A stretch of 64,000 nucleotides of DNA from contig OZ024741.1 of assembly GCA_964016885.1 (NCBI GenBank), positions 329,158,001-329,222,000 on the forward strand, given 5' to 3'. The translations under genes and the position numbers were made by a program. This document shows, in pieces, positions 3,055 to 57,572 of the stretch (the stretch's first letter is position 1; each line of letters opens with the position of its first letter). Below the pieces are notes generated by a model. The model made no database searches, had not been told where the DNA came from, and was given only the letters and a program-made list of their open reading frames with translations. The DNA is from Eledone cirrhosa. Taxonomy: Eukaryota.

Positions 3055-5449
3055 TTGGCACGACGCAAACACTTTCGATTTTTTATTAAGGAGGTTAAGG
3101 TTTGAAAAGATTATAGTATGGGTCTCTAGTAGACAAAGGTTACAGAATGTATTAGGTGGTTTGTAGGATGCCGCCTTACCTATCACTTCCCATTGAAGTG
3201 TATATGATCTATTTCTAGTTTTCAGATAGTGTATGTAGCTAGATAGTGAAGTGGAGTTGGCTAGACTGTGTTTTTTTGAAAGAATGGGGATGTGAGTTGT
3301 ATCTCGTTTTGAAGCAGTTCGAAGTAGAGCCTATATAGGTTTCAGAAGTTCTGACCGTGCATGAGTAGATGATGTCCTTGATTGAGCAGTTTTTACCTAA
3401 AGGGCAGGTTCTATTAGATCTACAGTTACAATTATTTTGGATGTTAACCTGTCGGTTATTATGTTGTGTAGAAGTTTGGTTGCTAGGTATTGCATTATAG
3501 CTATGAAGATTGTCGTTCCTAATGTTATTGATTTCATTATTGTTATTACTGTTATTACTATTGATATCAGGGTTAGCAGTTTTTACGTTGTTTTGAAAGT
3601 TTACCCCCTGCTGTGTTTTAGTTTGTTGAAAGTAAGTATTAATCTTTCATTTATTGCTAATAGCTATGTGGTATGCTATGTTTAGGCGTGGTAGAGTAGG
3701 AGATTTTAATTGTTTTAATTTATAAGACTATGGTACTTGTGGCCAGATGGGAAGTTTTTATCCAGGAGTGAGAAGAAAGCCTTAGGTAGATTGGTAGAGA
3801 CGTTTAGATTGAAAGGGGGGGTTGAAAAATGTATTAGTTCTTCTATTTTTGTTTTTTTATATCTGTTGAAGTGTTTCCGTTTATGGTATTTTGGTGTCTT
3901 CTCTGGTGTGAGTTATGTTTGTTGCTACCCTTTGTATTAGTGTGTGTGTGGTTATTACTCCTATTACTATTTTTCCTCGTGATCATATTGTGAGAAATAA
4001 TGTTGTAACTATGTGTTTTTATAGGTAGGAACTCAATCTCATTATTATGGCCTGATCTAGCTAATGCCTGATTATAGTATTGTGAGTTTTTGCTAAATAT
4101 GGTTTCGTCAAAAGATAGATTAAAGATTCTATTGGATATTCCTTTAGAGATAGAGTTTAATATTGGTCTAGGGTGGTTAGACTTGGTATCTACGTAAATT
4201 AGTTTTTCGTTAGGTTTATGGAATGGTGTATATATCCTTGAGTCTAGGTAAAGGGTAGCATCAAGGAAGTTAACGTTTTTAGTGTTTTTGTCTATGGTGA
4301 TACTTAGGTTATAGTTTTTGAAAGTTTTATGCAATAGTTTCCTAGTTCTTTCTATATTAAATTTGTTATAGTCTATAAGGAGTAGTGCATCATCGCGGTA
4401 CAAACCACCGTTGAGGTATGGTAGGTCCTTATGGATTTCGTTTAGTAGGTATAGGCCCACCAAATCAGTGACCTCCGCCGAGTCACTAGATCCCATGGTT
4501 ATGTCAAAATTGTTATGCGTATCCTTGCGGGTCCATAACTGATCTTCAAAAGTGATTACGGTTTTACGGGCCGCAAGTATGACATCAATCTGGGGTCTAG
4601 TCAGGTCACTATTGTTCATGGCCATAATTAGTGCCTTATTTAATAGGATAGGGGAAATAGAGGTGTAGTATGAATTGATATCAAACTGAATAAATTTTTT
4701 AGTTTTGTTCTCTTTGATATCCTTAGACCATTCAATAACTTCCCCCGTATTTCCCCACTGTTTAAGGTATATTTTGTGTTTAATCTGTGGGATAATTTTA
4801 TCTAAAATGTTCTTACTGATAATGCCAATGTCAAACTTGGAAGGGCAGATTAGTCTAATCGAAGGGTTACTAATGAAATCCTCCTTATGGTCCTTCAGAG
4901 AGAATCTAGGGGGGGGGGTCGGGGTGTATGGTTGTGTATGTCTCTGAAGTCCCAATTTGGACACTATATTACGGCCTTCCTAATTAATATCTTCTAGGTT
5001 TTTCATAGTAGTTTTCTTATAGCTCCTGTGTAGTTCTTTATATATAAATTTTCTATATGTATCATAATCTAGGCTGTATATGTTATTAGTTTTGTCCGCA
5101 TGCACAATAATTTTACTACTTGTTTTGAATCCATTAATAGAGGAGTTGAGTTTGTTTAAGAAGGTGTTGTTTCTATTACGATGCTTTTTGTATTTAATGT
5201 TCTTAACTAATTTTATTAGGTCATTTTCAAAGGTGTTTAGTAGTGTGTTGTGAGGAAGGCTTCTAAAAGTTTTAAAGCCGAAGGAGTCGAATTTGTTAGT
5301 ATCATCAATTTTGTTAGATCTGTTTTTATCATAATGGAATGTCCTCCATCTCACTCTATTGATAAAGGGGTTGATACTATTGATCAATAATTTTTCGTAT
5401 GTATCTTTGGATGGTATTGGTATGTTCTTAGTTGATCTTTGATCAGCAT
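3055..5449 (-). pseudogene. PLE-A polyprotein (N-terminal domain, RT, GIY-YIG), frameshifted
   Basis: STKNIPIP and RVRWR N-terminal motifs, HADKT, FDI, MGSSDSAEV, LYRDD and NFLD in ORFs 4980-5387 and 3843-4964. CNCRSNRTCPL...IIY...YIGSTSNCFKTRYNSH reads at about 3300-3430. Probable ATG at 5449. Confidence 0.9.
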
Positions 5450-5498
5450 ACTGGTAATTTAATGTATGTTAGCTCAACAGTATGGAGCAGTTAATAAT

Positions 5499-6672: not shown

Positions 6673-6696
6673 CTATTTATTTCTTTATATAGATTT

Positions 6697-7092
6697 AATA
6701 ATTGTTTCTACTTTAGGCACAAGGCCATCAAAATACCCAGTACATTACTGGTACTTTATTTTATCGACCCCGTAAGGATGAAAGGCAAAGTTGACCTGGG
6801 CGTGATTTGAACTCAGAATGGCAAGGGCCGTTACTCTATACGTCAAAGCATAGCGTCCGACCCTCTACCAATACTGCGAATCCCCACCTTAATAATTGTT
6901 TCTACTATTGGAACAAGGCCAGATATTACCCAGTACATTACTGGTACTTTATTTTGTCGACCCCGTAAGGATGAAAGGCAAAGTTAACCTCGGCGGGATT
7001 TGAATTCAGAATAGCAAGGGCCATAACTCTATGCATCAAAGCATGGCGTCCGACCCTCTACCGATACTGCCAATCCACCGCAATCTCCACCT
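6697..7092 (-). mobile_element. Two tandem tRNA-derived SINEs (about 190 bp each; MetaSINE-like central domain)
   Basis: Pol III A box (TGGCAGTATCGG) and B box (GAGTTCAAATC) on the minus strand, GCCTTTCATCCTTACGGGGTCGATAAAATAAAGTACCAG core, (ATT) tail; many copies in the window. Confidence 0.85.
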
Positions 7093-8629: not shown

Positions 8630-8888
8630 GAAAATTTAAGTAAGTAAAAAAATTTTTAAAAATTTTTTTAAAAAAATATTTTCTTATTTTACGTCTTTTA
8701 TATTATTGTTCTGCATTCTCCTGCATTGAACCACCTAGGTACTATGACATAACCTGTGTATTTGCTGGCATGGGCGTGCATCTGTGCGCTTATGTTAGTT
8801 GATATATTAAATTATCTATATATATATATATATATAGATGAGATTCTACAGCACTAGAACTGTTTCATTCTTTAGAAATCATCAGGAA

Positions 8889-8922
<34 letters not shown>

Positions 8923-9010: not shown

Positions 9011-9075
9011 TATTTTATCTGATGAAAGCGCACCATAATTTGCTTTGGTGTCCTTGAAATATGTATAATGAAATA
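9011..9075 (+). ncRNA. Type I hammerhead ribozyme in ORF-less cassette 8920-9210
   Basis: uauuuuau-CUGAUGA-aagcgcacca..ugguguccuu-GAAAU-augu-AUA-augaaaua; homologues at 28181 and 28332. Confidence 0.8.
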
Positions 9076-9289: not shown

Positions 9290-11565
9290 CATGGATCTCT
9301 ACAATGCCAACTGGGATGCAATTATGAACGAACTATCACATGTCGACTGGTCTTTTATACACGCACACACTTCAACCAACATCAAAACATCTTGGCAGAT
9401 CTTTGTAGACACTGTCGCAAATATATGTACAAGACACACCCCACCAAAACCTCTGAACAAAATCAAGTGCAGTATCCCCCAAAACAGAAAAACAATTATC
9501 AGAAAAATAAAAAGAACAAACAAAAAAATGAACACACTAAAATACTGCCAACAGCAACACACACATTCAATGGCTATCACCCTGCTTGAGTAAAAAAACT
9601 ATAACCTCCAGCAATGCATGATGACCATCAGCAATAAACTGAGAATAGCTGAAGAGAGGTAGACCATTGAGAAAATCAAACTCAACCCCAAAGTGTTCTT
9701 CTCATTCGCTATAAAACACAAGGTCACCATCTCCGCTGTTGGCCCCCTAGTTGATGAAAATGGCACATTCCAGGACAATGCCAAAACCATGGGCGAGATA
9801 CTGCAGAAGCAATACTGCTCTGTTTTCAGCAACCCTGATATGGCCGATCTGGGTCGTATCAGTGATATTAACCCCCAACACACTATATCAGACATAACGT
9901 TTGGCGCCCCTAATGTCTTAGCGGCAATAAACGAAATTAAACACAATTCAGCAGTAGGTCCCGACAGGTTCCCTGCTTGTGTCCTGAAGGTGTGTCGACA
10001 CCAACTTGCAACTCCTCTTGCTTATCTGTTGAGGAACTTACTGGACACTGGCTATATTCCTGAAAACTTTCTGTCCCAGTCCGTTGTCCCAGTCTTCAAA
10101 AAGGGAAATAAGTCCCTTGCAGTGAACTACCGTCCGATCTCACTCATCTCTCATATTATCAATGTATTTGAGAGGGTGGTGAGATCAGGAATAACCCACT
10201 TTCTTGAAAGCAACGGCCTGCTGAACTCCAACCAACAATGGGTTCCGTAATGGAAGGGACTGCCTAACGCAGTTCCTGCATCACTTTGACGATGTTTTGA
10301 GAGCCTTGGGAGAGGGCTCCAATACTGATGTCATCTACCTTGATTTCAGCAAGGCCTTCGACAGGGTTGACCATAAGATTCTACTGAAAAAACTATCCAA
10401 TGTTGGTGTCTCTGGAAGGTTACTACAGTGGATCAAATGTTTCCTGACAGGCAGAACCCAGCATGTTGTAGTCGAAGGAGTAAAATCAAGCCCTGCCAAA
10501 GTCCGCAGTGGCGTCCCACAAGGCACTGTGTTGGGCCCACTTCTTTTCATCATTTACATTAATGACATTACTGACATCATCAAACACAGTAACATCAGAA
10601 TCTTCGCAGATGATTCTAAGCTCCAAAGGGTCATCAATAAGGTGGGTGATCGGACTTGCCTTCAGTCAGACCTACTGGCTGTTATCCAATGGGCAGAGAT
10701 GAATAATATGCTGTGGAATGAGAATAAATTTGAACTAATCTACTTTGGAAAAAAGGATGCTCTGAAACTACCATACTTTCTTCCTTCGGGTGAAACTCTA
10801 GTGGCTTCCAATAACATCAGAGACCTGGGAGTAATTGTGGACAACAATATAAGCTGGGCCACTCATATAAACAGAAAAGTTGATATGGCCCGCAGAATGT
10901 GTTGCTGGGTTCTCAGAACTTTCCAGTCGAGAGATATCCACACTGTTGTCCTTCTCTTCTCCACTTTTGACCGACCCCACCTTGAATACTGTTGTCCACT
11001 GTGGTCACCCCACACGAAACAAAGTATCATGAAAGTTGAAGCACCCCAAAGGTCAATTACAAAAAAGATAGTTGGCATGACAGGCCTTGACTATTAGGGT
11101 CGATTAGAAAAGCTCAAACTTTATTCTCTTCAACGTCGCCGTGAGCGCTACATTATCTGTATGATGTGGAAAATATTCCATCACCTTTGCCCAAATGATG
11201 TTGGCATCATCTTTAGTGTACACCCAAGGCTTGGACTCCGTGCTATCCGCCCAGGACAAAAATCCCACTCGCATCACATAACAACAATACGGCACAATTA
11301 TTTCACCTCAATTGGCCCTGCACTCTTTAACATTACACCAACACTCATCAAAGCAGAGGCAGGCCCCATCAAGTTCAAGAAGTCTTTGGATAAATTCCTT
11401 CAAAAAATCCCGGATAAGCCTCCTACACCCGGATATGCCTCCGTAAACAATAACTCTCTGCTCGAGTGGGCCATGGTGCCCAAATACTGATTTGTAAGAC
11501 TTCGCCAAGTGGTGCTATTGAGTTAGACATGGCCTGGGCCAATACTGGCCGAAACCTATCAAAGT
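9289..11565 (+). mobile_element. 5'-truncated LINE of the CR1/L2 group; RT pseudogene
   Basis: ORFs 9693-10250, 10297-11097 and 11161-11490 carry NYRPISL, YLDFSKAFD, SGVPQGTVLGP, FADD, RDLGV, PHLEYC and LDKFLQKIPD; stops and frameshifts; flanked by (TA)n. Confidence 0.92.
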
Positions 11566-14530: not shown

Positions 14531-16661
14531 TTAATTAGGTTTATAATATTTAAATGTTTTTCTCAGTCTATGATTACACGATATAATTAATTCCTGTCGC
14601 TTATTTAATAGGATATCCTTAGATTTCATTATTTCAAATAGTTCTTGGGAACATAATCTACATTCATTTCTATTATTTTGATAAGGGGTGGCTCTTTTGA
14701 GCACACTCCAGGTCATATCATATTCTATATTCTTATTTCTATAACTATTAATTTTTTCTGCTAGAGATGTTGTATTAACCAGTGCGGCATTTTTAAAACT
14801 GTTTGTGGGTATTAAACCTTACCTTAAAATTGTTAGAAGTAGCTCCTATATATGAGCAAATAGAATCTTTAGTTTTAACTTTACATTTATAAACTATGTT
14901 GTTAACAAGACAATTTCCTTTTAATGGGCAGTTTGCTTTGTTTCTACAGTTACAACCTTTCGTTAATTCTGTATTTGAGGAGATATTATGGTTAGTTTGA
15001 TGTATTGGTGGTATACTTATGGTTTTTTTACATTTATATGCATTATAGGCACTTATATTTTGTTTTATGTTTTTGGTTGTTGAGTATGAGAATTTAACTG
15101 TTGATCTATTTAAGATTTGATGGTATTTGTGGTTTGGCGGGAAGTTCTTCTTTAGGATATAAAAGAATTTTTTAGCAATATTATCCTTAATTTGTAAATT
15201 AAATGGAGCATTATACCAAGTAACTCGTCTATTACGGTTTCTATGTTGTTTATTATTTTTATAGGTTGCATCGTGATGTTTACTAGGAGGATTAATGTTA
15301 ATGACCTCACCACGCACATTTTTAGTTAGATTTATTGATTTAGGTGTTTTATCTTGTTTATTAGGAGTTTTATTATTAACATTTATTAGAGTTGTATGAT
15401 GAGTAGTTTTTTGAGAGTTACTATACTTTATATTAGAGGAGTTGTTGGTATTTTGGGGTATAGTGTGAGTGGCATTTAGGTGTGTACTTTTCATTTGGTG
15501 TTTTTTGGTAATATTAGGTTGTATGTTTATAGTATTTTTAGTAGAAGGTATATATTCTAATCTATTTTTGTGGCCACTTCTATCTAGAGCTTCATTATAG
15601 AAGGTCGCATTTTTATCAAATACATCTTGGTTAGACGAAAGGTTAGAAATTCTAAGTGATATATTATATGCAAGGTTTTTAAGGATAGATTTAGGGTGAT
15701 TAGATTGTGAGTGTATGTAGTGTAAGTTTTGGTTGGGTTTATGGTAAGGTTGGTAGATACCCGTAGCTAAGTCTAAAGTTATATCTAGGAAATTAACTAC
15801 TTTACTTGTGTTTTCAAAAGTAATATGAAGACTATAATAGTCTTTAAGGAAAGTTCTAATAAGCTTTTTATTTTTTTCTATTTCTGAGAGGCTAAGGTTG
15901 TTGGAAAGAAGAAGACAGTCATCACGATATAAACCACCTTTAAGGTGGGGAAAGGAAGCATTTATGTTGAAAAGAAGAAAGAGGCCCACAAGATCAGTAA
16001 TTTGGGCAGAATCGCTTGAACCCATAGTAATATCAAATAGATTACTATATGTGTTTCTGGTCCAGTATTCATTCTGAAATTCAATAAGTGTTAGTCTAGC
16101 ATGTGTAATAATATTAATGTCATCCAAAGTTAAGTTAGATCTATTTTTAGCAAATATCAAAGCTTTGTTCAGGAGTATAGGTGATATAGAAGAATAGTAA
16201 TTATCTATACCAAATTGTAGAAATGAGGCAGAAGATTTACATCTAATATTTTTAAACCAGTTAATTACCTGGGAAGTGTTTTCCCAGAGTGGTAAATTAA
16301 CATGTTTTCTTATTTGTGGGATGACTCTATCCAAAATTTTTTTGCTAATTATTCCAATATCAGATTTGGAGGGACATATAAGTCTTATAGAAGGATTAGA
16401 GTTAAAGTTTGATTTATGATCCTTCAGGTTGAAGTGTGGTCTTTTCAATGCCAAAGGTTCAGTTCTATCTTCAATATTTAGTTTATTTACTATGTTGTGT
16501 GTTTTGTTGTTGATGTTGGTGAGTGACGCATTATTAGATTTTTTATAATTTTTCCTGAGTTCTTTATATATGAACTCATTATAATTTTCAATATCCATGT
16601 GATACAAGTTTCCAGTTTTGTCCGAGTGGACATGGATTTTTTTAGACTTTTTTAGGTCCAA
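14531..16661 (-). pseudogene. PLE-B RT + GIY-YIG endonuclease (622-aa ORF plus frameshifted C-terminus)
   Basis: HSDKT, MGSSDSAQI, LYRDD, NFLD, CNCRNKANCPLKGNC..IVY..YIGAT..FKVRFNTH, CRLC..E..LLNKRQELIISCNHR. Motif-A Asp reads FGI; frameshift near 14795. Confidence 0.92.
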
Positions 16662-16691
16662 TAGGGTAGAATCAAGGTCCTTTTGAAAGAC

Positions 16692-17877
16692 AAGGTAATT
16701 AACTGGTTTAAAAATATTAGATGTAAATCTTCTGCCTCATTTCTACAATTTGATATAGATAATTACTATTCTTCTATATCACCTATACTCCTGAACAAAG
16801 CTTTGATATTTGCTAAAAATAGATCTAACTTAACTTTGGATGACATTAATATTATTACACATGCTAGACTAACACTTATTGAATTTCAGAATGAATACTG
16901 GACCAGAAACACATATAGTAATCTATTTGATATTACTATGGGTTCAAGCGATTCTGCCCAAATTACTGATCTTGTGGGCCTCTTTCTTCTTTTCAACATA
17001 AATGCTTCCTTTCCCCACCTTAAAGGTGGTTTATATCGTGATGACTGTCTTCTTCTTTCCAACAACCTTAGCCTCTCAGAAATAGAAAAAAACAAAAAGC
17101 TTATTAGAACTTTCCTTAAAGACTATTATAGTCTTCATATTACTTTTGAAAACACAAGTAAAGTAGTTAATTTCCTAGATATAACTTTAGACTTAGCTAC
17201 GGGTATCTACCAACCTTACCATAAACCCAACCAAAACTTACACTACATACACTCACAATCTAATCACCCTAAATCTATCCTTAAAAACCTTGCATATAAT
17301 ATATCACTTAGAATTTCTAACCTTTCGTCTAACCAAGATGTATTTGATAAAAATGCGACCTTCTATAATGAAGCTCTAGATAGAAGTGGCCACAAAAATA
17401 GATTAGAATATATACCTTCTACTAAAAATACTATAAACATACAACCTAATATTACCAAAAAACACCAAATGAAAAGTACACACCTAAATGCCACTCACAC
17501 TATACCCCAAAATACCAACAACTCCTCTAATATAAAGTATAGTAACTCTTAAAAAACTACTCATCATACAACTCTAATAAATGTTAATAATAAAACTCCT
17601 AATAAACAAGATAAAACACCTAAATCAATAAATCTAACTAAAAATGTGCGTGGTGAGGTCATTAACATTAATCCTCCTAGTAAACATCACGATGCAACCT
17701 ATAAAAATAATAAACAACATAGAAACCGTAATAGACGAGTTACTTGGTATAATGCTCCATTTAATTTACAAATTAAGGATAATATTGCTAAAAAATTATT
17801 TTATATCCTAGAGAAGAACTTCCCGCCAAACCACAAATACCATCAAATCTTAAATAGATCAACAGTTAAATTCTCAT
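16692..17877 (+). pseudogene. PLE-B RT fragment (inverted arm)
   Basis: ORF 16683-17552 with intact FDI/YRDD, premature TAA at 17550, continuation in 17646-17877. Confidence 0.9.
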
Positions 17878-18316
17878 ATATATATATATATGTGTGTGTA
17901 TGAGTATGTGTGTGTGTGTGTGTATATATATTTATGTGTATGTATATATCTATATATATATATGTGTGTATGTATATCTCTTTATTTATGTATGTCTGAG
18001 TTGTGTGTGAGCGTGTGGTTGTATGTGTATATATATACATGGATATGTGTATGTGTATGAATATATACGTATATGTATGTGTGTGTGTGTATATATATGT
18101 GCGTGTATGTATATGTATATATATGTGTGTATATATGTATGTATATATATGTGTGTATATATATGTATGTATATGTATGTATGTGTGTATGTGTATGTAC
18201 ATATATGTGTATATATATATGTGTGTGTTGTGAGTATATGTATATATATATGTGTGTATGTATGTGTGTCTATGTATTTATATATGTATATGTATATGTC
18301 TCTATATATATATATG

Positions 18317-21962: not shown

Positions 21963-23010
21963 AATAATAATTCTTTCTAATATGGAAACGAGGCCAGCAA
22001 TTTTGTGATGGGGAAAGTCTATTATATCGACTCCATTACTTAACTCTATTTTATGACGAAACTCCATGTTAACCTCGGCGAAATTTGAAATCAGAACGTA
22101 GCAATCGTTAAATACCTCAAAGCATTTTGCACAACGCTCTATCGATAATGCCAATCCACCGCCATAGTGAAATAATGGTTTCTTTTATAGGCACAAGGCC
22201 AGTGCGTGACTGGTACTTTATTTTATCGACCCTCGTAAGGATCAAAGGCAAAGTTAACCTCGGCGGGATTTGAACTCAGATCATAAAGGGCCGTAACTCT
22301 ATGCTGCAAAGCATGGTGTCCGACTCTACCGATACTGCCAATCAACCGCTTTTTGAATTAATAATAATAATAATTGCTTCTACTTTAGGCACAAGGACAG
22401 CAATTTGGGGGATGGGAAAGTCGATTAAATCTACCCCAGTCCGTGACCGGTACTTTATTTTATAGACTTCGTAAGGAGGAAAAGCAAAGCTAACCTCGGT
22501 GAGATTTGAACTTATAACGTAAAGGGCCGTAAAATAATAATGATTTCTAGTATAAGCACAAGGCCAGTAATTTGGGGGGAGGGGATTGGCGATCAAATCG
22601 ACCCCAGTACGTTACTGGTGCTTTATTTTATCGAACCCGTAAGGATGAAAGGTAAAGTTAACCACGGCGGGATTCGAGAGTTCAGGGATCATAGATGTAT
22701 AGCAGGATATTATTATTATAAAATAATAATATCCTGTTTTTTGTGTTGTATTGTTAGTGATTAGGATGCGTAGTTAGTCTTTATATTTTCATAGTGTGTC
22801 GCTATGAAATAATTGTTTCTACTTTAATAATTGTTTCTACTTTAGGCACAAGGCCAGCAATTACCCAGTGCATTACTCGTACTTTATTTTCTCGACCCCG
22901 TAAGGATGAAAGGCAAAGTAAACCTCGGCGGGATTTGAACTCAGACCGTAAAGGGACGTAACTATGCTGGAAAGCATGGCGTCCGACTCTCTACCGATAC
23001 TGTCAATCCA
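21963..23010 (-). mobile_element. Cluster of about five tRNA-derived SINE copies and fragments
   Basis: Repeated TTTATCGACCCCGTAAGGATGAAAGGCAAAG..CTCGGCGGGATTTGAACTCAG. Confidence 0.85.
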
Positions 23011-24250
23011 ATAATGATATCCTGCTATACATCTATGATCACTGAACTCTGGGTGGAGTCATAACGACGACTTCATATTTTTTTCTGCAATTTAAAGTGT
23101 CATTGTATCGAGACATTTCAATTTTGATAACATACACAATACTGCTTGATATGCCCGTGTGTTAAGAGACAATATCTCGTCTCTTATGTTACATACAGTG
23201 AATTATTCATTTTAGCAAGGTGTCGGCCTCGCTTTATTTTGCCAATACTGCAGAAAGACCTGGTTATTTGACCCTTGGCTATGACACGGAGACATATTTT
23301 GTGAATGATATCCAAGGATACTTATATTTAGGAATAATTTTTCTTTTTTCCTTTTCTTTTGGGACTATATCTCAAGAATATTGTTGCAAATTTGTCTCGC
23401 CAACATACAAGAATTACAAGCGGCAATTGTTGATGAATGGCCGAATATTGACTTGAATATTGAATATATTAATTAGAAATTAATTAATGACGCATTTGCC
23501 CAGTGTAATCGATTACATTTTGTCTATTCTCTACGATTACACATTGCAACAACCATTAAAAGCTTTCTAAAGCATGTATACAGAACAGTCTATTGTACGT
23601 CTTCGCTATCTAAAATACACTGCTTAGTGCATGAATAATTACTTAATGCATACAGATTGTTTGTTTGTCTTTACCACTTAGTCAGGGATGGAAGGACAGT
23701 GTCCATGGCTCTATAATTCAGCTCGCCCTCCAAGGTTATTGAAAGGAATATAGTGAGTTAAATCAGGGATTCAGCTCGAGTGCTTACAACAGAATGAACG
23801 TCTCCAAACTTTCCCAATATCTAGGTGGCAGGGTTAAACCAAGCGACAGTCAGTTTATGTCTAGCTCCCAGGAACAAATGCCTCTAGGAATACCATGTCA
23901 CGCTCAAATGAATCCATCAATCCAAAACGTTGGACAGTTATTTAATTAGAAGCCCAAAATGGATGAAATGCGAACAGTTGATATTTATACTCATATCTAT
24001 GACAGCCGAAACAACTATACAACACATTTTGTCCTACGCTATTACGATTCTGTGATTTGCCAGCAAAAGACAGTGCGTATTAATCGGCTTTTCCGATATA
24101 TTCACAAGGGCAGTTTAGTGATATAAGCCGTGTCTTCAGCATTTAAATCTAGCGAAACCTATCCCTCTCGAGGTCCAAACACAATCGATTTCTTCCTCAG
24201 AGAAGTGAGAAAGATATTCAGAGGAATAATCGTTTCTAGTACTTGGCATG

Positions 24251-27779: not shown

Positions 27780-28040
27780 CCTTCATCAGTGATCTTCCAA
27801 CCTTCATTGGTATTTCATCGCTTTAAAGACCATATACCTCTGGTTGGTGCGAGCAACGCCTAAAAAAATTCGTTGGGACACGTAAATATGGGGAACGAGC
27901 GAGACAGTAAACAAACAAATATGGTAATGCAACGAAAAGTGAGGAAGAAGGAGTCAAGTCCCTGAAATCGATGAACATAGAGGTATATGTTCTTTAAAGC
28001 GATAAAATACCAATGAAGGTTGGAAGATCACTGATGAAGG
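27780..28040. repeat. Inverted repeat of about 62 bp, each arm ending in CTGATGAAGG (HHR 5' half)
   Basis: ccttcatcagtgatcttccaaccttcattggtat.. versus ..ataccaatgaaggttggaagatcactgatgaagg. Confidence 0.8.
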
Positions 28041-28180: not shown

Positions 28181-28246
28181 TATTTTATTATATATATTTC
28201 AAGAGCAACCAAGGTAAATTATGGTACGCTTTCATCAGATAAAATA
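28181..28246 (-). ncRNA. Type I hammerhead ribozyme (9011 family), left arm of inverted pair
   Basis: uauuuuau-CUGAUGA-aagcguacca..ugguugcucuu-GAAAU-auau-AUA-auaaaa. Confidence 0.78.
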
Positions 28247-28331: not shown

Positions 28332-28397
28332 TAATTTATCTGATGAAAGCGCACCATAATTTACCTTGGTCGCCCTTGAAATATATATAATAAAATA
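28332..28397 (+). ncRNA. Type I hammerhead ribozyme (9011 family), right arm of inverted pair
   Basis: uuuau-CUGAUGA-aagcgcacca..uggucgcccuu-GAAAU-auau-AUA-auaaa. Confidence 0.78.
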
Positions 28398-29122: not shown

Positions 29123-29206
29123 CAACATATTGGCTGTGAGGTATACAGTCCTGATGAAGGTTAATGACCCAGAAACATGTTGATTGTTCCTCAAAGCCAG
29201 TGTTGT
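29123..29206 (+). ncRNA. Minimal type I hammerhead ribozyme
   Basis: acaguc-CUGAUGA-a-gguu aau gacc-ca-GAAAC-au-GUU-gauugu; extended stem I gagg/ccuc, uggcu/agcca, caaca/uguug. Confidence 0.85.
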
Positions 29207-31074: not shown

Positions 31075-32901
<1,827 letters not shown>

Positions 32902-33404
32902 CATGTATATATATATGATAAACTTAGGGAAATTAACAAAGAGGACAAGACAACGATCGAAAACAAAGCAAGACGAAAAACATTTTTTAGGGGAACCATA
33001 AAGAATTGTTTTTAAAATAAATAAAAATACAGACGAAAGACACAGAACCCCAGGGTCATCGGTCGTTAACGTAGACTTTGGCAGTTTCAACCCCTAGTCT
33101 GACATACCGAAACGCTGTCAATTTTGATTGTCTCGGGATCATAACCTTATTATATAAGAAGCTGTCTGATGATGTCACGGCACTGGGTATACAGAAACGT
33201 GTGGCCACTGTCGTCATTGAAATATGTATCACAGCATTATCATTAAAGGACTTTAACATCTGAAAAAACTACTTTGCATTTTCTTATTATATCTATATAT
33301 ATATGTCGGGGGGGGGGGGGGTAAACAGTAAACAGAAATAGTAACACAATCAGTACAGTATATCGAAGGAGTATATTAGGCTAACACTTGCAATAGCAGG
33401 AAGA

Positions 33405-33445
33405 GTGTCTTAACGTTTCGGACGCCAGTTTTTCATCAGAATAAA
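33405..33445 (-). ncRNA. Degenerate minimal hammerhead
   Basis: CUGAUGA..ucc-GAAACGUUA; stems I and II are poor. Confidence 0.4.
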
Positions 33446-34360
33446 GATTAAGAAATAAGATAGATTGAAGGGGTGGGCCGCGTGGAATTGGAAAAAATGT
33501 CTTTACATAAAAATAACAGGACCATTCATGTTGACATCTCTTAATCTTCTAGGTAATCAAGGTAGGTTTTATAATCCTTTTAGAACTTGATTTAGAGTTC
33601 ATGTAAATATCCAACCGAAACAAAGTGAAATCCGTTTTCGTGGAATGATGATATCCCATTACATGTCTTTGAGTGTTCAGAACTACAGGGTTAGATATAT
33701 AATATTGTGTTTAGGGATAGACAGTAGAATGGATGTGTCGAGGCTAAAGGTATGGAGTTGCATAAGTACCATTGATAAATTTGCACTCTGATGATATGGC
33801 CCTCTGAAACTATCGTCAATCAAGGGATTAATTAACTACCGCACTTTTTCTTATCATTTCATATCTTGACACACGCACACACACGCGTGCGCGCACACAC
33901 ACGCACACACATATATATATATATACATATATACATATATATATATATCGTGTCTATGTAGCCGATCTCTCAGACTTTTACGAAGTGCTAAGGGCATCCG
34001 CATGTGCGGAGATGCTTTGAAGTAACTTGAAATAAAGTGAAAACTCTCAAAGACGGAAAACGAAGTTGCCATCGGCTGCTACGAGGAAACGAACCTCGTA
34101 CCTGCCAGATATTCCACATTATTGACTATGGAAAAGCGAAATTCCTAAACATATGATTTATAACAGAGACGCATTTGGAAGCACATACAATATGTTTGTG
34201 TATAACAAGCATACATAATTTAACTGAGTATGGGAACAACCAAATATTGGTATTTCAAAACATTTGGTCCTAATTTAGAGATGCTAATTGTATATATATT
34301 TCCGAGATATTGAATAATTGATATTCGCTTATATATATATATAAACGAATATCAAAAATG

Positions 34361-34404
<44 letters not shown>

Positions 34405-34634
34405 TTATTTATTTATATATATAGCATTAATATATAAGGAATCAAAGAATCAGTGTTGCATCATATACATATTTAATTACATATTACATATGTTTCACTG
34501 TCGATCAACTCGAGGAACGATCTATTAATGATCGAACCTGACTCTGAAGCTTGTCAGATATGTTTTAACATGTAGACTTGAACCATAAGACCTATATATA
34601 TATATGTTTGTGTGTGCGTGTGTGTGTGCGCGCT

Positions 34635-34704
<70 letters not shown>

Positions 34705-34705
34705 T

Positions 34706-34798
34706 GGTTACATAACAGTTAGTTCACTATACCGAGAACAAGGATCGGCTAAGGTGAAACAATTGTTCTCGGTATGGTGAACTAACTGTTGTGTAACC
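34706..34798 (+). repeat. Fold-back hairpin with an HHR 3' half (GAAAC-aatt-GTT) at the start of the right arm
   Basis: ggttacataacagttagttcactataccgagaacaa versus ttgttctcggtatggtgaactaactgttgtgtaacc; between (TA)n tracts. Confidence 0.75.
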
Positions 34799-34880
34799 TC
34801 TTCTACTTAACTCGTCCCATGGACTGAGTGCTCTACGACTACGGCTATTACCTTCCAGTGTTCTACCACTATATGTATGT

Positions 34881-34993
<113 letters not shown>

Positions 34994-35002
34994 ACTAAAA
35001 TC

Positions 35003-36527
35003 CTACGAAGTCCGATTTAGGTAGACTTAGTAAAAGGATTTTAGATAGGATATACCTGAAATTAGTAGTTTGGCCCCTCTTGCACTGTGGAACAATTCTT
35101 TCGCAGTAATTGATTGGTTCAACGGCATATGCAACAAGGAACATTGCCGTTTTATCTAATTCGACATCAATAATTACTACTCCTCCATCACTTTACCACT
35201 TCTCCTTAGAGCTATCAATTTGGCTAAAACACTCACAGGGGTTAAGGATTTCGAAGTTGATGTCATCCTCAATGCCCGTAAGTCGGTGATTAATTTCGAC
35301 GACTCTATTTGGATTAAAAAATCTAATAGTACCCCATTCGACGTGAGTATGGGCGCCAGCGATTCTGCGGAGGTTACTTATCTTATCGGCCTTTTCCTTC
35401 TTTTCTCTATCAAGGAAGAATTCCCCAATGTGGGCGGTGGTTTGTACCGTGATGACGGTCTTTTGACAAAGTGGGGCCCACATGCTTGCGACAGGTTCAG
35501 AAAAGAACTCATAGCCTTCTTTAAAGGCTTCAACCTCTCCATACAGGTTGAGGCCAACCTCTCGGTCGTTAATTACCTCGAAGTTACCCTCGATTTGTCG
35601 AATGGCTTGCACTACCCGTATAGAAAGCCGAATGATACGCTTAATTACATAAGTAAGCATTCTAACCATCCTGCCAGCATAACCAAGAACCTGGTAAGAA
35701 ACGTTTCGTTGAGGCTTTCCCGTCTATCTACAAACGAGCATATTTTCAACGACCATTCCATATATTACAATGAAGCTCTTGCTCGGAGTGGATTTGTCGA
35801 TAAGGTAGCTTATACAGAGTACGAGAATAGACCTAGGAAAAATAGATCCCGAGGCATTATATGGTATAACCCACCATATACTATGGAGTGGCCACACTTT
35901 TAGCTAAGATCTTTCTCTCCCTTATTATGAAGCATTTCCCCCAGCACATAAATATAGTAAAATTTTTAATACCATTAAATTTCTTACTCTACGACACCTA
36001 ACCTTGCACATAACATCACAGCTTCAAATTTACCTAAATTACCTAGCCGTAGGAACACGTGCAACCCTGTAGCTAGTACTAACTGTAATTGTAGGAATCG
36101 GGTTGACTGCCCCGCCCCTATCCGGGAAATGCCTCTTTAGTAACGTTGTCTACAAATGTAAGGTTGAAACACCCACGTCCCGTAGGGCCTACATAGGGTT
36201 AACCGCCAATAGATTCAAGCAGCGTCTTTACATGCATACCCATTCTTTTCTTAACCCTTTAAGAAGGAATATGACGTCACTTTCGGCTTATATCTGGAGT
36301 CTAAAAGACAACGACACCCAATATAAGTTACACTGGGAGATCCTAGCTTAGGCTAGATCGTATAACGGAAATAAAAGACCATGTGACCTCTGCGCCGATG
36401 AGGCCCTGGAAATACTCTACGCCAAAGACCACATCTTAAACAAAATATCTGAGGCAATTTTGGCTTGTAAACATAAATTGCACAAAACTATACTGTATTA
36501 TAGCCCCACATTATACCCTAACGGATA
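35003..36527 (+). pseudogene. PLE-C RT + GIY-YIG (disrupted)
   Basis: TKSDLG, FDI, MGASDSAEV, LYRDDG, WYNPPY, VYKC..YIGLTANRFKQR..H; stops and frameshifts. Confidence 0.9.
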
Positions 36528-47314: not shown

Positions 47315-47720
47315 TTAAACCTAATGGCAACATTAACCACAAAAATAACTAATCTTAACCACAAAAGCTAGCCCTAATACGTATCACAAAAACTAACCCT
47401 ACCACAAAAATTAACCCTAACACTAACCACAAAACTTACTTTAACCCTAACCACAAAAACTAACTCTAAACCTAACGACAAAGCTAACCCTAAACCTAAC
47501 CACAAAAACTAACCCTAAACCTAAACACAAAAACTTACCCTAAGTCTAACCACAAAATCTAACCCTAACCCTAACCTCAAAAACTACCCGTAACCTAACC
47601 ACAAAAACTAACTATAACCCTAACCTCAAAAACTACCCTAAACCTAACCACAAAAACTAACTATAACCCTAACCACAAAAACTAACCCTAACACTAACCT
47701 CAAAAAAAAATTAACCGTAA
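47315..47720. repeat. Telomere-like tandem array, about 25-bp unit (CTAACCACAAAAACTAACCCTAAAC)
   Basis: About 15 degenerate units built on CCCTAA/CTAACC. Confidence 0.85.
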
Positions 47721-48611: not shown

Positions 48612-49962
48612 GTTACTACTATTGGTGCTGCTGTTCTGCTGTTGGTGCCGTTACTGTTTCTGTTGCTACTAATCGTGCTGCTGTGCTGCTGTTGGTGCTG
48701 TTACTGTTACTGTTGCTACCAATGGTGCTGCTGTGCTGCTGTTGGTGCTGTTACTGTTTCTGTTGCTACCAATGGTGCTGCTGTGCTGCTGTTGGTGCTG
48801 TTACTGTTACTGTTGGTACTATTGGTGCTGCTGTTACTGTTTCTGTTGCTACTAATCGTGCTGCTGTGCTGCTGTTGGTGCTGTTACTGTTACTGTTGCT
48901 ACCAATGGTGCTGCTGTGCTGCTGTTGGTGCTGTTACTGTTTCTGTTGCTACCAATGGTGCTGCTGTGCTGCTGTTGGTGCTGTTACTGTTACTGTTGGT
49001 ACTATTGGTGCTGATGTTACTGTTTCTGTTGCTACTAATCGTGCTGCTGTGCTGCTGTTGGTGCTGTTACTGTTACTGTTGCTACCAATGGTGCTGCTGT
49101 GCTGCTGTTGGTGCTGTTACTGTTTCTGTTGCTACCAATGGTGCTGCTGTGCTGCTGTTGGTGCTGTTACTGTTACTGTTGGTACTATTGGTGCTGCTGT
49201 TACTGTTTCTGTTGCTACTAATCGTGCTGCTGTGCTGCTGTTGGTGCTGCTACTGTTACTGTTGCTACCAATGGTGCTGCTGTGCTGCTGTTGGTGCTGT
49301 TACTGTTACTGTTGCTACTATTGGTGCTGCTGTTGGTGCTGTTACTGTTACTGCTACTACTATTGGTGCTGCTGTTGGTGCTGTTACTGTTACTGCTACT
49401 ACTATTGGTGCTGCTGTTGGTGCTGTTACTGTTACTGCTACTACTATTGGTGCTGCCGTTGGTGCTGTTACTGTTACTGCTACTACTATTGGTGCTGCTG
49501 TTGGTGCTGTTACTGTTACTGCTACTACTATTGGTGCTGCTGTTGGTGCTGTTACTGTTACTGCTACTACTATTGGTGCTGCTGTTGGTGCTGTTACTGT
49601 TACTGCTACTACTATTGGTGCTGCCGTTGGTGCTGTTACTGTTACTGCTACTACTATTGGTGCTGCTGTTGGTGCTGTTACTGTTACTGCTACTACTATT
49701 GGTGCTGCTGTTGGTGCTGTTACTGTTACTGCTACTACTATTGGTGCTGCTGTTGGTGCTGTTACTGTTACTGCTACTACTATTGGTGCTGCTGTTGGTG
49801 CTGTTACTGTTACTGCTACTACTATTGGTGCTGCTGTTGGTGCTGTTACTGTTACTGCTACTACTATTGGTGCTGCTGTTGGTGCTGTTACTGTTACTGC
49901 TACTACTATTGGTGCTGCTGTTGGTGCTGTTACTGTTACTGTTGCTACTATTGGTGCTGCTG
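48612..49962. repeat. Minisatellite: 183-bp higher-order repeat (about 3.7 copies) followed by a 42-bp unit (about 15 copies)
   Basis: AATCG marker at 48671, 48854, 49037 and 49220; then attggtgctgctgttggtgctgttactgttactgctactact repeated. Confidence 0.92.
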
Positions 49963-50545
49963 TTTTTTTTGTTTGTCTTTTTTACGGCAGGCGCCTGAGG
50001 ATTAGCCTCAGTCGCGCTAGACTGGCGTGTGGGAGACGCACGAGTTCATCTATGCTGGAGCCGAGTTGGTGGTGATAACAATCCACCATCAAGGCTGGAC
50101 ATCTCATCCAAGGATGTTCGGAGGATTCTTCTTCCTCTCCGCACAGACGGCATGTGTTGATTTCCGCTTGGCCGATCATATGGAGCCTCCTCCTTAATGA
50201 CGTGTGATGTCCACTGCGGAAGCGGACGAGATGGTTCCTATCTGCTTTGGAGAGAGTTTGCTCACTCTCTTTATTTGGGTGGCGGCTAAAGACTGACTGT
50301 AGACGTTGATGCTGGAGCGGTGGTGGGCGAAATTCCTGGCAAATGACGGCGTGTTGGGTGGTGGCATCGATTGAACTTTCCAGTTGAGTAGATGCTGAGC
50401 CGTGTTACGCCTGGGCGTCCGCCAGTTCATTCCATTTAATGTTGCAGTGCCCCGGGACACAGAGAGCTGCTAAGGTTCACCCCTTTGTTATTTTGTTAGC
50501 GATCCCTTGCAGCTCGGTAATGAAAGTGTCATGGGGGAAGGGGTT
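49963..50545 (-). mobile_element. Non-LTR retrotransposon 3' fragment with CCHC knuckle, inserted in the minisatellite
   Basis: CRLCGEEEESSEHPWMRC (CX2CX8HX4C) followed by an A-rich tail; the minisatellite resumes at about 50550. Confidence 0.72.
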
Positions 50546-52590: not shown

Positions 52591-53282
52591 ATATACATAA
52601 GAACAGATAAAAAACATAATAGATGTCATCAAAAACAAGTTCTCCAATAGCGTAATTCTAGGAAGAAAACATACACAAACCTCCGAATTACTCTGTTACT
52701 TCCTTTCCTCCTGCTTAGCAAACCATAGTCAGTTTTTACCCGTTCAGACTCGTCCATCTCATCGCTCTCACCCATATTTTATAAAACCCCTAAAAAGCAG
52801 AACCTCCCTCTCTAGCTTACCTTCCACTTCAAATGAAACTTGAAGTTGATGAGGGCTTAATCAGGGAGGAAGATTCCTGTCCTTCATCATTTGGTTGTGT
52901 CTACCATACAGCTTCTTTCGTTATAGCTACCAGGCAGAGGAAACTTTTACACCTATCTTCTAAAAGAAGCAACTGATTTCATTATAGACCCAGCTAATAG
53001 TCAGCTCTATCCTACACGTGATAGCAGTGATTTGATAGAAGCGCATAAATCTCTACTGCACGGACACTGGGCGATAGTATGCAGGACGAGTATGTCGCTC
53101 CGTGTGTATCTCAGCAGGTCCAGCTGTTGGCACTTCTGTGCCTGTAGAGCTTGGCTCTACAACTTTGGCTCGCTAACTATTTTTTGGAAATTGGCCATAA
53201 GAAAAATAAAGAAAATAATAATAATAATAAAAATAAATATATTTCTAAATATATGAGGGATTCAGTGTTAGAGAATATATGT

Positions 53283-53373
<91 letters not shown>

Positions 53374-53374
<1 letters not shown>

Positions 53375-53893
53375 TTATTTAAAAGATTGTTTAATGTTTG
53401 CTTGTTCCGCTAATCTTAATTTTATAGTTCTGGTATCTCAAATTAGTACCATTGAACAACAAATGTATTATAGACACCCTATATATTTCCGTAGGTACTT
53501 AGTATCTGTGGGGATATTAATCTCATTTTATGTATATTCTCCCATGTGTAGAGAAAAAATCGTTGTACCTTGCTGCTATTTTTAGTGGCGTGGCAAACAA
53601 CACGTCTATAATATTCCCGCTTTTACTAACGGCCAGTTTATGTGTGGGTCACTTTAACGGCCTGACCTCATACTATCTAGCAGTAAGCGATATATTTACA
53701 AACTGTGAGACTTTACGTCCTATAGAATGGAAATAGCTATCTGAAGAGCTGATCTTTCCGTTGGAAATTCTCTGGATTTCCAATCTTTTGTGAAGCGAAA
53801 CTGTCGGTAATAGCATTTTGGACAGGTGAATATTTAAATCGTATTATAATTTATTTAAAATATTGTTTAATGTTTGCTTGTCCCGCTCATCTC

Positions 53894-53900
<7 letters not shown>
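53374..53900 (+). mobile_element. ORF-less HHR cassette: 477-bp unit with about 50-bp terminal direct repeat, in (TA)n
   Basis: 53374-53423 is repeated at 53851-53900; HHR lies inside. Confidence 0.8.
53731..53818 (+). ncRNA. Type I hammerhead ribozyme
   Basis: gcuau-CUGAAGA-gcu..uuggaaauu/ggauuuccaa..agc-GAAAC-ugucg-GUA-auagc. Confidence 0.85.
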
Positions 53901-53986
<86 letters not shown>

Positions 53987-54069
53987 TTATATATATATAT
54001 ATATAAGCTGAAAGGTTATTGAAAGTATATATATATATATATATGTATATACATATATATACAGAGAGT

Positions 54070-54659: not shown

Positions 54660-55048
54660 TTGTGGATTGGCAGTATCGGTAAAGGGTCGGACGCCATGCT
54701 TTGACGCATAGAGTTACGGCCCTTGCCATTCTGAGTTCAAATACCGCCGAGGTTAACTTTGCCTTTCATCCTTACGGGGTCGATAAAATAAAGTACCAGT
54801 AATGCGCTGGGTAATTGCTGGCCTTGTGCCAAAAAGTAGAAACAATTATTAGAAGGCGGTGGAATGGCAGTATCGGTAGAGGATCAGACGCCATGCTTTG
54901 CAGCATAGAGTTACGGCCCTTTATGATCTGAATTCAAATCCGGTCGTGGTTAACTTTGCCTTTCATCCTTACGGAGTCGATAAAATAAAGTACCAGTAAT
55001 GCACTGGGATAATTGCTGGCCTTGTGCCAAAAGTAGAAACTATTATTA
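54660..55048 (+). mobile_element. Two tandem tRNA-derived SINEs
   Basis: A box TGGCAGTATCGG, B box GAGTTCAAAT, shared core and tail. Confidence 0.88.
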
Positions 55049-56094: not shown

Positions 56095-56850
56095 ATGATA
56101 CAAGTTATGCAATGTCTCTTTGGGGACAGCATATTCCTCCGTAATATTTGACTTGTTTTTTTGTTGGGGGGGGGGGGGCTTGTATTTTTGTTGGTAAATA
56201 TCTCCAAAGCTTCTTTGATTAACACAAGTTCCTCGATTATTACTGATATGATTTCAGTGGGCATGCCCAACATTGTGGAGATCTTAGTTTCAATGTCTTT
56301 ATATTTAGACAGTTATCCAGAGAACTTAAATGATGTATTACGTTCTGATGTTATTGATATATATATCAATCAGCCTGAAGATTTTATCGCCGTGTTTTTT
56401 TATTGTGATGGCAGGCCTGTTTGCTTTGATTTCCTTATCTGACTGCTCATGTCTGTCCCATATCATGGTAACATTATCATTCTTGGCGACTGGATTGGGC
56501 GGTGGATTGACAGTATCGGTAGAGGGTCGGACGCCATGCTTTGCAGCAAAGAGTTACGGCCCTTTATGGTCTGAGTTCAAATCCCGCCGAGGTTAACTTT
56601 GCCTTTCATCCTTACGGGGTCGATAAAATAATTGTTTCTACTTTAGGCACAAGGCCAGCAATTACCCAGTGCATTACTGGTACTTTATTTTATCGACCCC
56701 GTAAGGATGAAAGGCAAAGTCAACCTCGGCGGGATTTGAAGCGGGGTCGATAAAATAATGTACCAGAAATACACTGGGATAATTGCAGGCCTTGTGCCAA
56801 AAGTAGAAACAATTATCATTCTTGGCGACTGTTTCTGGTTTCCGATCATT
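56095..56850 (-). mobile_element. R4/Dong LINE C-terminal fragment interrupted by a composite SINE
   Basis: KPETVAKNDN|VTMIWD..DKEIKANRP..LSKYKDIETKISTMLGMPTEII reads across the SINE. Confidence 0.7.
56493..56811. mobile_element. Composite (+/-/+) SINE insertion with a 20-bp target-site duplication
   Basis: attatcattcttggcgactg at 56473-56492 and 56812-56831. Confidence 0.82.
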
Positions 56851-57387
56851 TTTCAAAGACTCTGTTGTTGTTATATTCCAGTCATGGAATATAACAACGG
56901 CCCATGAACCGTATGCGATCCGTTTGGCTTTCTAATTTGAAAATTGCTTCGAATTTTTTAGTAGTGCGGCCCTGCCTTCTGATGAGCCACATTTTACGCG
57001 GCCCACTGTTCGAAAAGCATTGCTTATGCCTATTCTAGTCCTTGCCACAATTTCAGTGTAGGTATGCCTCTGTCTTGTTATGGCGTTAGTTATATTCACT
57101 TTTTGCCAATATTGGACAGCTGAAAATAATATGCTTAGTAGTTTCCTAATGATACCCACATATCCTGTACATTGTGTCCATGCCATTATCGTGCGATGAT
57201 GGTATGATCTAGTGCTAAGACTCTGAAATTGAATGGTGCTAACAAAACTGTCTCTCTCTGCAGTATGTCCAATTTCTTTAGGTCATTGATTTATCTGTTG
57301 TTGGTCAACATCTGCCTTTGTGCGCATCATCCATTGGTATCATCACCATAAACATCATCATCATCATCATTATTATTATTTGTATAA

Positions 57388-57572
57388 GGGCGGTATATTG
57401 GCAGTATCGGTAGAGGGTTGGACGCCATGCTTTCTAGCATAGTTACGTCCCTTTACAGTCTGAGTTCAAATCCCGCCGAGGTTAATTTTCCTTACGGGTG
57501 GATAGAATAAAGTACCAGTAATGTACTGGATAATTGCTGGCTTTGTGCCTAAATTAGAAACAATTATTATTA
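57388..57572 (+). mobile_element. tRNA-derived SINE
   Basis: Same family as 54660. Confidence 0.85.

Follow-up and report, generated by a model that had tools for sequence, protein, structure and literature searches.

What is the short hammerhead-bearing repeat that lies between two (TA)n tracts in a 64,000-nt stretch of the Eledone cirrhosa genome (hereafter the window), and how did it come to be there? The earlier note on this DNA had offered two readings, a retrozyme-like circle copied slightly more than once or a solo pLTR with a duplicated tail. Based on a comparison with related copies sampled from the 3.0-Gb genome, we consider it very probable that the repeat belongs to a non-coding 476-nt hammerhead tandem family with two fixed 3' ends, whose insertion into TA microsatellites was carried out by the reverse transcriptase (RT)-endonuclease of an autonomous Penelope-like element (PLE). 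The family behaves as an animal non-LTR retrozyme and most likely is one, that is, a non-autonomous element mobilised by Penelope. Its main feature, which is absent from the earlier note, is the presence of two fixed 3' ends, A and B, one each per inverted insertion.

The element occupies 528 nt between the two tracts and consists of a 476-nt unit plus 52 nt of a second unit. A direct repeat was found at an offset of 476 (44 of 50 matches, compared with 15-22 at 14 other offsets tried), and positions 53373-53424 and 53849-53900 were identical at 47 of 52 positions. The one unit with a short, terminally redundant overlap between (TA)n tracts (53275-53378 and 53895-54061) was thus confirmed, whereas its length was corrected from 477 to 476 nt. 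The features are as follows.

53275..53372, no strand: 5'-side (TA)n tract, the insertion target (the part outside the unit; whole tract 53275-53378)
53373..53848, plus strand: full 476-nt unit, subfamily F1
53424..53426, plus strand: internal copy of site A, read through
53427..53516, plus strand: region between sites A and B, with two hairpins predicted (53427-57 and 53484-516)
53535..53537, plus strand: internal copy of site B, 204 nt past the cut, the family's second fixed 3' end; read through here
53729..53759, plus strand: possible 5-bp contact (pseudoknot) of 53729-33 with 53755-59, conserved in sequence
53736..53814, plus strand: type I hammerhead, from the motif scan and the stem changes of the copies
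53736-40/53810-14, plus strand: stem I of the hammerhead, with the core at 53741-47 (CUGAAGA) and 53797-800 (GAAA)
53748..53796, plus strand: stem II, its 43-nt insert containing an 8-bp hairpin (53761-53783)
53800..53808, plus strand: palindromic stem III, with two pairs within the palindrome
53849..53900, plus strand: beginning of the following unit, up to fixed 3' end A at 91-93 nt past the predicted cut
53901..54061, no strand: 3'-side (TA)n tract (the part outside the element; whole tract 53895-54061)

The window copy consists of one arm that ends at A; its 5' end is a variable truncation point located 40 nt past the predicted cut of an upstream unit. The terminal redundancy is likely to be incidental and not a feature of the element, the duplicated end being just where copying stopped. 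The longest ATG-started frame in the doubled unit had 68 codons and the overlapping frame gave no Pfam match; the unit is non-coding, in agreement with the absence of an ORF reported before, and appears to have no LTR structure. Hairpin 53427-57 was predicted in all three subfamilies folded, and an exact degenerate pattern of the A-B hairpin region had 959 genome matches (control, 0). This region is a candidate protein-binding element. The window copy was 98.1% identical to the majority of the 30 best copies, which were themselves 89-98% identical to it; it looks dead, and its subfamily F1 looks older and inactive.

A BLAST search with the unit gave no match elsewhere in the 64-kb window, and the unit is therefore unrelated to the other hammerhead cassettes there, as had been claimed with respect to a 558-nt unit. 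Hammerheads of a different (TA)n-flanked family, which showed no match to the 476-nt unit and is probably that of the 558-nt unit, are located at 9011-9075 (plus strand), 28181-28246 (minus) and 28335-28394 (plus), the latter two being head to head. A very small hammerhead-like cassette between TA tracts at 8833-8890 (minus) ends a few bases past stem I, and a similar piece is present in another locus (L050, 3330-3390). CTGATGA-containing hammerhead-like motifs at 27780-28040 and 29150-29200, uncalled by the motif scan, are possibly of a differently wired type. A 5'-truncated LINE reverse transcriptase (9663-11490, plus strand; RVT_1, E 2e-19) lies in a TA tract and adjoins a hammerhead cassette. 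The window also contains a SINE-like repeat of ~195 bp that is abundant and often forms tandem dimers (6695-7076, 22171-23017, 54662-55048 and 56500-57570), a 25/49-bp array with telomere-like CCCTAA units (47393-47706), and a 42/168-bp array that is rich in trinucleotides and has long open frames (48636-49964). At locus L297, one copy of the SINE-like repeat splits an F1 element between sites A and B.

The motif scan placed the hammerhead at 53736-53814, with the predicted cut after 53809. The hammerhead called before at 53731-53818 was thus found again, but it is not fully canonical, because stem II carries the 43-nt insert and stem III has two pairs; the extra span is a bulged extension of stem I that is not kept in the sister subfamilies. 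Rfam gave no match at gathering in the window, and no hammerhead even at E<=10. The predicted lowest-energy fold (−19.1 kcal/mol; z −1.46) differs from the hammerhead fold (−9.4 kcal/mol). The core was intact in 37 of 50 F1 copies, and one stem I pair was AT in 20, GC in 12, TA in 11, GT in 2 and unpaired in 5 of them. Among 11 sequences of several subfamilies, 18 double-sided stem changes were counted compared with 5.8 in shuffled sets (0/500), a control that kinship inflates. At the level of sequence comparison, the copies support the predicted hammerhead fold. For the 5-bp contact between 53729-33 and 53755-59, no compensatory change was seen across the copies. Stem III was short and palindromic in every subfamily aligned. 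Because dimerisation improves cleavage by axolotl hammerheads whose helix III is similarly weak (PMC7229834), it is a fair inference that stem III may cross-pair between two units to form a dimeric hammerhead. In the window copy, one change weakens this cross-pairing (predicted −6.9 vs −11.3 kcal/mol).

Scoring of 40 of the 3295 first-look candidates in the genome yielded 83 family matches. An F1-specific 20-mer had 91 exact, dispersed genome matches (control, 0), none of them at a 476-nt spacing, which suggests that F1 copies may number some hundreds. F1 copies extending upstream continue into the previous unit; two tandem hammerheads were present in L007, L016 and L018, and one in the window copy. 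No F1 arm reached two units (0 of 62; longest, 1.69). The sister subfamilies, with units of 457-490 nt that are 72-73% identical to F1, are young. The genome comparison proposed in the earlier note thus returned tandem copies, with sister subfamilies in long arrays and without a joined ORF, and the term retrozyme-like is upheld for a self-contained tandem family in which no junction between a copy and an ORF was seen. A hand tally was made of the first 30 of the 91 motif loci, three of which overlap one site and five of which repeat earlier loci. It comprised 20 single-arm copies of 0.28-1.24 units, seven of which reached at least one unit, with 3' ends at A in 16, at B in 3 and at another position in 1. 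Most loci elsewhere were picked by best score to the query, which biases their lengths and the single-arm A:B ratio. A further unit subfamily of ~480 nt with degenerate hammerhead cores was observed at L168 (938-1620).

The 3' ends were classified as A (76-97 nt past the predicted cut) or B (184-208 nt). The count was based on 119 non-redundant insertions, ten edge-cut locus rows and two short fragments being left out; three complex insertions were set aside, leaving 116 insertions with 177 arms. Ninety arms ended at A and 73 at B, the fixed ends being ~92 and ~204 nt past the predicted cut, respectively, and 14 ended elsewhere; 161 of the 177 abutted a TA run. Among 61 head-to-head two-armed insertions, 49 were A+B, none was A+A or B+B, and 12 had at least one other end. 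In F1 only, 13 of 17 two-armed insertions were A+B. Partial tandems, an inverted 5' arm, a tail on one end and a microsatellite target were all found in the family. The 5' ends were scattered: those of 7 arms out of 177 lay no more than 6 nt from the cut compared with 4.5 expected, and a cut linear monomer as template was rejected on this count. L1-style twin priming on one RNA was likewise rejected, since a start of the B arm no more than 25 nt from site A was seen in 5 of 49 cases compared with 5.3 expected. The predicted cut site was read through in every copy longer than 93 or 204 nt. Therefore, the template was either uncut there or re-ligated.

The genome holds ORF-bearing families with RT plus GIY-YIG at the C terminus. 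One of these, probably Hydra-type by its motifs, is represented by 74243 first-look candidates, with numerous 713-aa open frames, and Pfam gave no match for its protein. Pieces of Hydra-type PLE ORFs are also located in the window (14793-17552, 32145-35903 and 3843-5468), two of the three as head-to-head inverted pairs (15085-16270 vs 16693-17878, 99.6%). One end of each kind was present at all six inverted Hydra-type loci checked, one of which is rearranged. The dominant family appears to be Neptune-type, judging from a cysteine linker as described in PMC8557442. Its 3' ends lie +79-82 or +150 nt past a hammerhead-like site; in 25 loci, 9 of 11 two-armed insertions were A+B and none was A+A or B+B, and three more A+B insertions were found among 30 further loci. 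Because the same end rule holds in Neptune-type and Hydra-type elements, the one-A-one-B rule is common to the PLE class and does not name the partner of the repeat.

No sequence shared with the ends of autonomous families was found among the seven families sampled, in searches that score the best candidates. BLAST of the unit against Neptune-, Hydra- or Penelope-type flanks gave no match, and alignments of the leader to the seven PLE families scored no higher than shuffles (the best p among 21 tests was 0.01). Queries with the GIY-YIG family, the Hydra-type protein or divergent units found no partner with shared sequence, and a distant Neptune-type homolog returned the dominant Neptune family again and no partner. 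An ORF with RT and GIY-YIG joined to the repeat was not found in the loci examined. Loci L132 and L133 contain a young autonomous Neptune-type family with many 775-aa open frames, a variant hammerhead core and a loopless palindromic stem III; it is a candidate source of enzyme for work in vitro.

The following course of events may be proposed. The units would be transcribed as multimers, and monomers may be released from these by the hammerheads, probably acting as dimers, and then circularised by a host ligase. A borrowed PLE protein would bind the leader past the ribozyme and nick (TA)n, and cDNA would be primed inside the RNA at site A or B. Copying would proceed upstream, pass the ribozyme, enter the previous unit and stop at a variable point; the window copy would have started at A and stopped after 528 nt, giving one unit plus 52 nt. 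Where both target strands were primed, one cDNA would start from A and the other from B, and the two would be joined head to head. The protein of Poseidon, a PLE of Anolis, nicks AT-rich DNA on both strands, uses two internal RNA start sites that bound the genomic tail, extends both strands in vitro and is a predicted dimer (Frangieh et al. 2024, PMC11167929). In its full form, the proposal is that a PLE RT-endonuclease dimer primes both nicked strands on one ribozyme-made circle, at A and B, and rolls up to ~19 times; we put this forward tentatively, as a reading with appreciably less than an even chance. Ribozyme cleavage was dispensable for insertion in vitro (PMC11167929), and eight of nine tested frog retrozyme dimers did not cleave (bioRxiv 10.64898/2026.07.22.740005). 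With no arm of two units, F1 falls outside what the latter source calls active.

The same element and enzyme could also have operated on a template that was always a linear uncut multimer from a genomic array, with no circle and with an incidental ribozyme, and the chance of this comes close to even. The footprint of the window copy fits a circle copied slightly more than once, as had been suggested, but an uncut multimeric transcript would leave the same footprint; moreover, autonomous elements leave the same partial tandems (a 4979-nt tandem unit), and uncut RNA was the main substrate in vitro (PMC11167929). The long arrays of the sister subfamilies bear on this question. Near-identical ORF-less arrays reach 15.65 units in L150, and the L202/L203 insertion (G000:C1:156425694-156438640) comprises ~28 near-identical 457-nt units in two inverted arms, ~19 in one orientation and 9.3 in the opposite one, at 99-100% identity. 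This extent in one insertion argues against the linear multimer. The insertion also ends at A and B, outside the 61 counted above. In many arrays (L150, L212 and L205), locus-private variants were present in every unit and in both arms, and repeated copying of one unit is therefore favoured. On the other hand, variants alternate between units in some arrays, with a period of 3 in L209 and scattered in L202 and L208, which fits a multimeric template or later duplication; in L202/L203, a single substitution recurs in scattered units of both arms. The covariation of the hammerhead stems also speaks against an incidental ribozyme. The unit folded as a circle was more stable than shuffles (z −4.3 to −6.0, 30 shuffles), although a linear repeat could show likewise.

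Priming from both strands at A and B was further compared with an origin of the inverted arm at the DNA level, in which the cDNA folds back and primes itself and an endonuclease resolves the product at the other site. Such self-priming with endonuclease resolution has been proposed for the one-sided tail (PMC3846280, PMC8557442). The two arms of one insertion were mutual best or tied matches in 30 of 36 testable cases, and one arm lay within the span of the other in 39 of 49 A+B insertions, both as expected of folding back. However, neither arm contained the other in the remaining 10 of 49, by 29-211 nt, a pattern that might stem from later deletion at the centre of the palindrome, and both strands have been extended from two start sites in vitro (PMC11167929). 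We regard the fold-back origin as unlikely, though not negligible.

A solo pLTR with a tail, left by a 5'-truncated autonomous PLE as yet unfound, is improbable. The hammerhead, the two ends and the TA target are pLTR anatomy, and a rare parent may be missed by genome searches that score the best candidates alone. PLE ORF remnants lay within 1.5 kb of 16 of the 119 insertions, but only two had the same strand and an upstream position. At L133, a relative of the unit follows a Neptune ORF but was rejected as a link, being a separate insertion past the Neptune element's own end and TA tract, and the remnant at L193 has 33% identity and lies 0.9 kb from the insertion. Furthermore, copies extending upstream enter the previous unit, no copy was seen to run into an ORF, the sister subfamilies form arrays without ORFs, and none of the 30 motif-selected F1 loci had a same-strand PLE ORF joined upstream.

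It is scarcely credible that the family is an ordinary satellite dispersed through DNA recombination, or that the repeat is host DNA duplicated at the target site: the homogeneous arrays of the sister subfamilies are long and unit-level duplication may have acted in some, but the copies are dispersed on many contigs at TA targets, show 5' inversions and have 3' ends that are fixed and 5' ends that vary, and the repeated 52 nt are element sequence present in other copies, which rules out duplicated host DNA.

The single copy in the window is ordinary, and the significance of the locus lies in the end rule of its family. So far, proposals on what mobilises animal retrozymes have relied on co-occurrence and sequence likeness, and it is still unsettled how the one-sided tail and inverted arm of Penelope arise. 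A countable end rule is now common to a non-coding hammerhead repeat (49 of 49 classifiable inverted insertions) and two autonomous clades. If the proposed mechanism is true, the one-A-one-B rule would be a genomic footprint tying animal retrozyme circles to Penelope enzymes, and two-site priming on a circle would explain both the one-sided tail and the head-to-head inversion. Tests of two-site priming and of the circle could draw on the family's short template with its two defined start sites, on the young subfamilies and on ORF-bearing candidates that are likewise young. Inverted arms with a one-sided tail are already in print for PLEs (PMC3846280, PMC8557442). In the main text of the open literature searched, neither a one-A-one-B count nor such a rule in a retrozyme was found, and supplements may show end maps; no mention of 'ribozyme' was found in a recent annotation of cephalopod repeats (PMC13282606).

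Among known systems, the plant LTR retrozyme, with type III hammerheads in its LTRs and a 4-bp target-site duplication (TSD), does not correspond to the repeat, whose motif is open at stem I. The overlap length differs among copies, unlike a fixed 4-bp TSD, and a TSD is unreadable within (TA)n. Animal non-LTR retrozymes, for which a PLE has been proposed as mobiliser (Cervera and de la Pena 2020, PMC7229834; Li, Clavereau and Pollet 2026, bioRxiv 10.64898/2026.07.22.740005), are alike in their non-coding low-GC units (35% here) with a type I hammerhead, in their monomer, dimer and multimer forms, and in their co-occurrence with PLEs; the weak palindromic stem III resembles axolotl motifs (PMC7229834). 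The repeat differs from them, as far as these sources describe them, in its long stem II insert and in its two fixed ends with the one-A-one-B rule; no sequence link to a pLTR was found, and its 476-nt unit compares with RNAs of 170-400 nt (PMC7229834) and units of 51-972 bp (bioRxiv 10.64898/2026.07.22.740005).

The insertions of endonuclease-bearing PLEs (PMC3846280, PMC8557442) share the head-to-head arms, the tail on one arm, the (TA)n targets and a hammerhead near the 3' end, and non-autonomous multicopy derivatives have been described for the Chlamys elements in the same sources. In contrast to these PLEs, the repeat has no ORF, its tail (the A-B distance) is ~111 nt compared with 30-40 nt for published PLEs, and a sister subfamily reaches ~28 units per insertion. 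The closest parallel in the placement of the start sites is Poseidon (PMC11167929), which also has two internal start sites defining a tail and an AT-rich target; its first start site is ~85-92 nt past the cut, as derived from that work, compared with 91-93 nt here. Poseidon is autonomous and starts in an AC-rich loop unlike its target, whereas both sites in the repeat hold TA that could pair with the target. In addition, the published account of Poseidon reports no strand difference in start site, whereas the genomic arms of the repeat use one site each.
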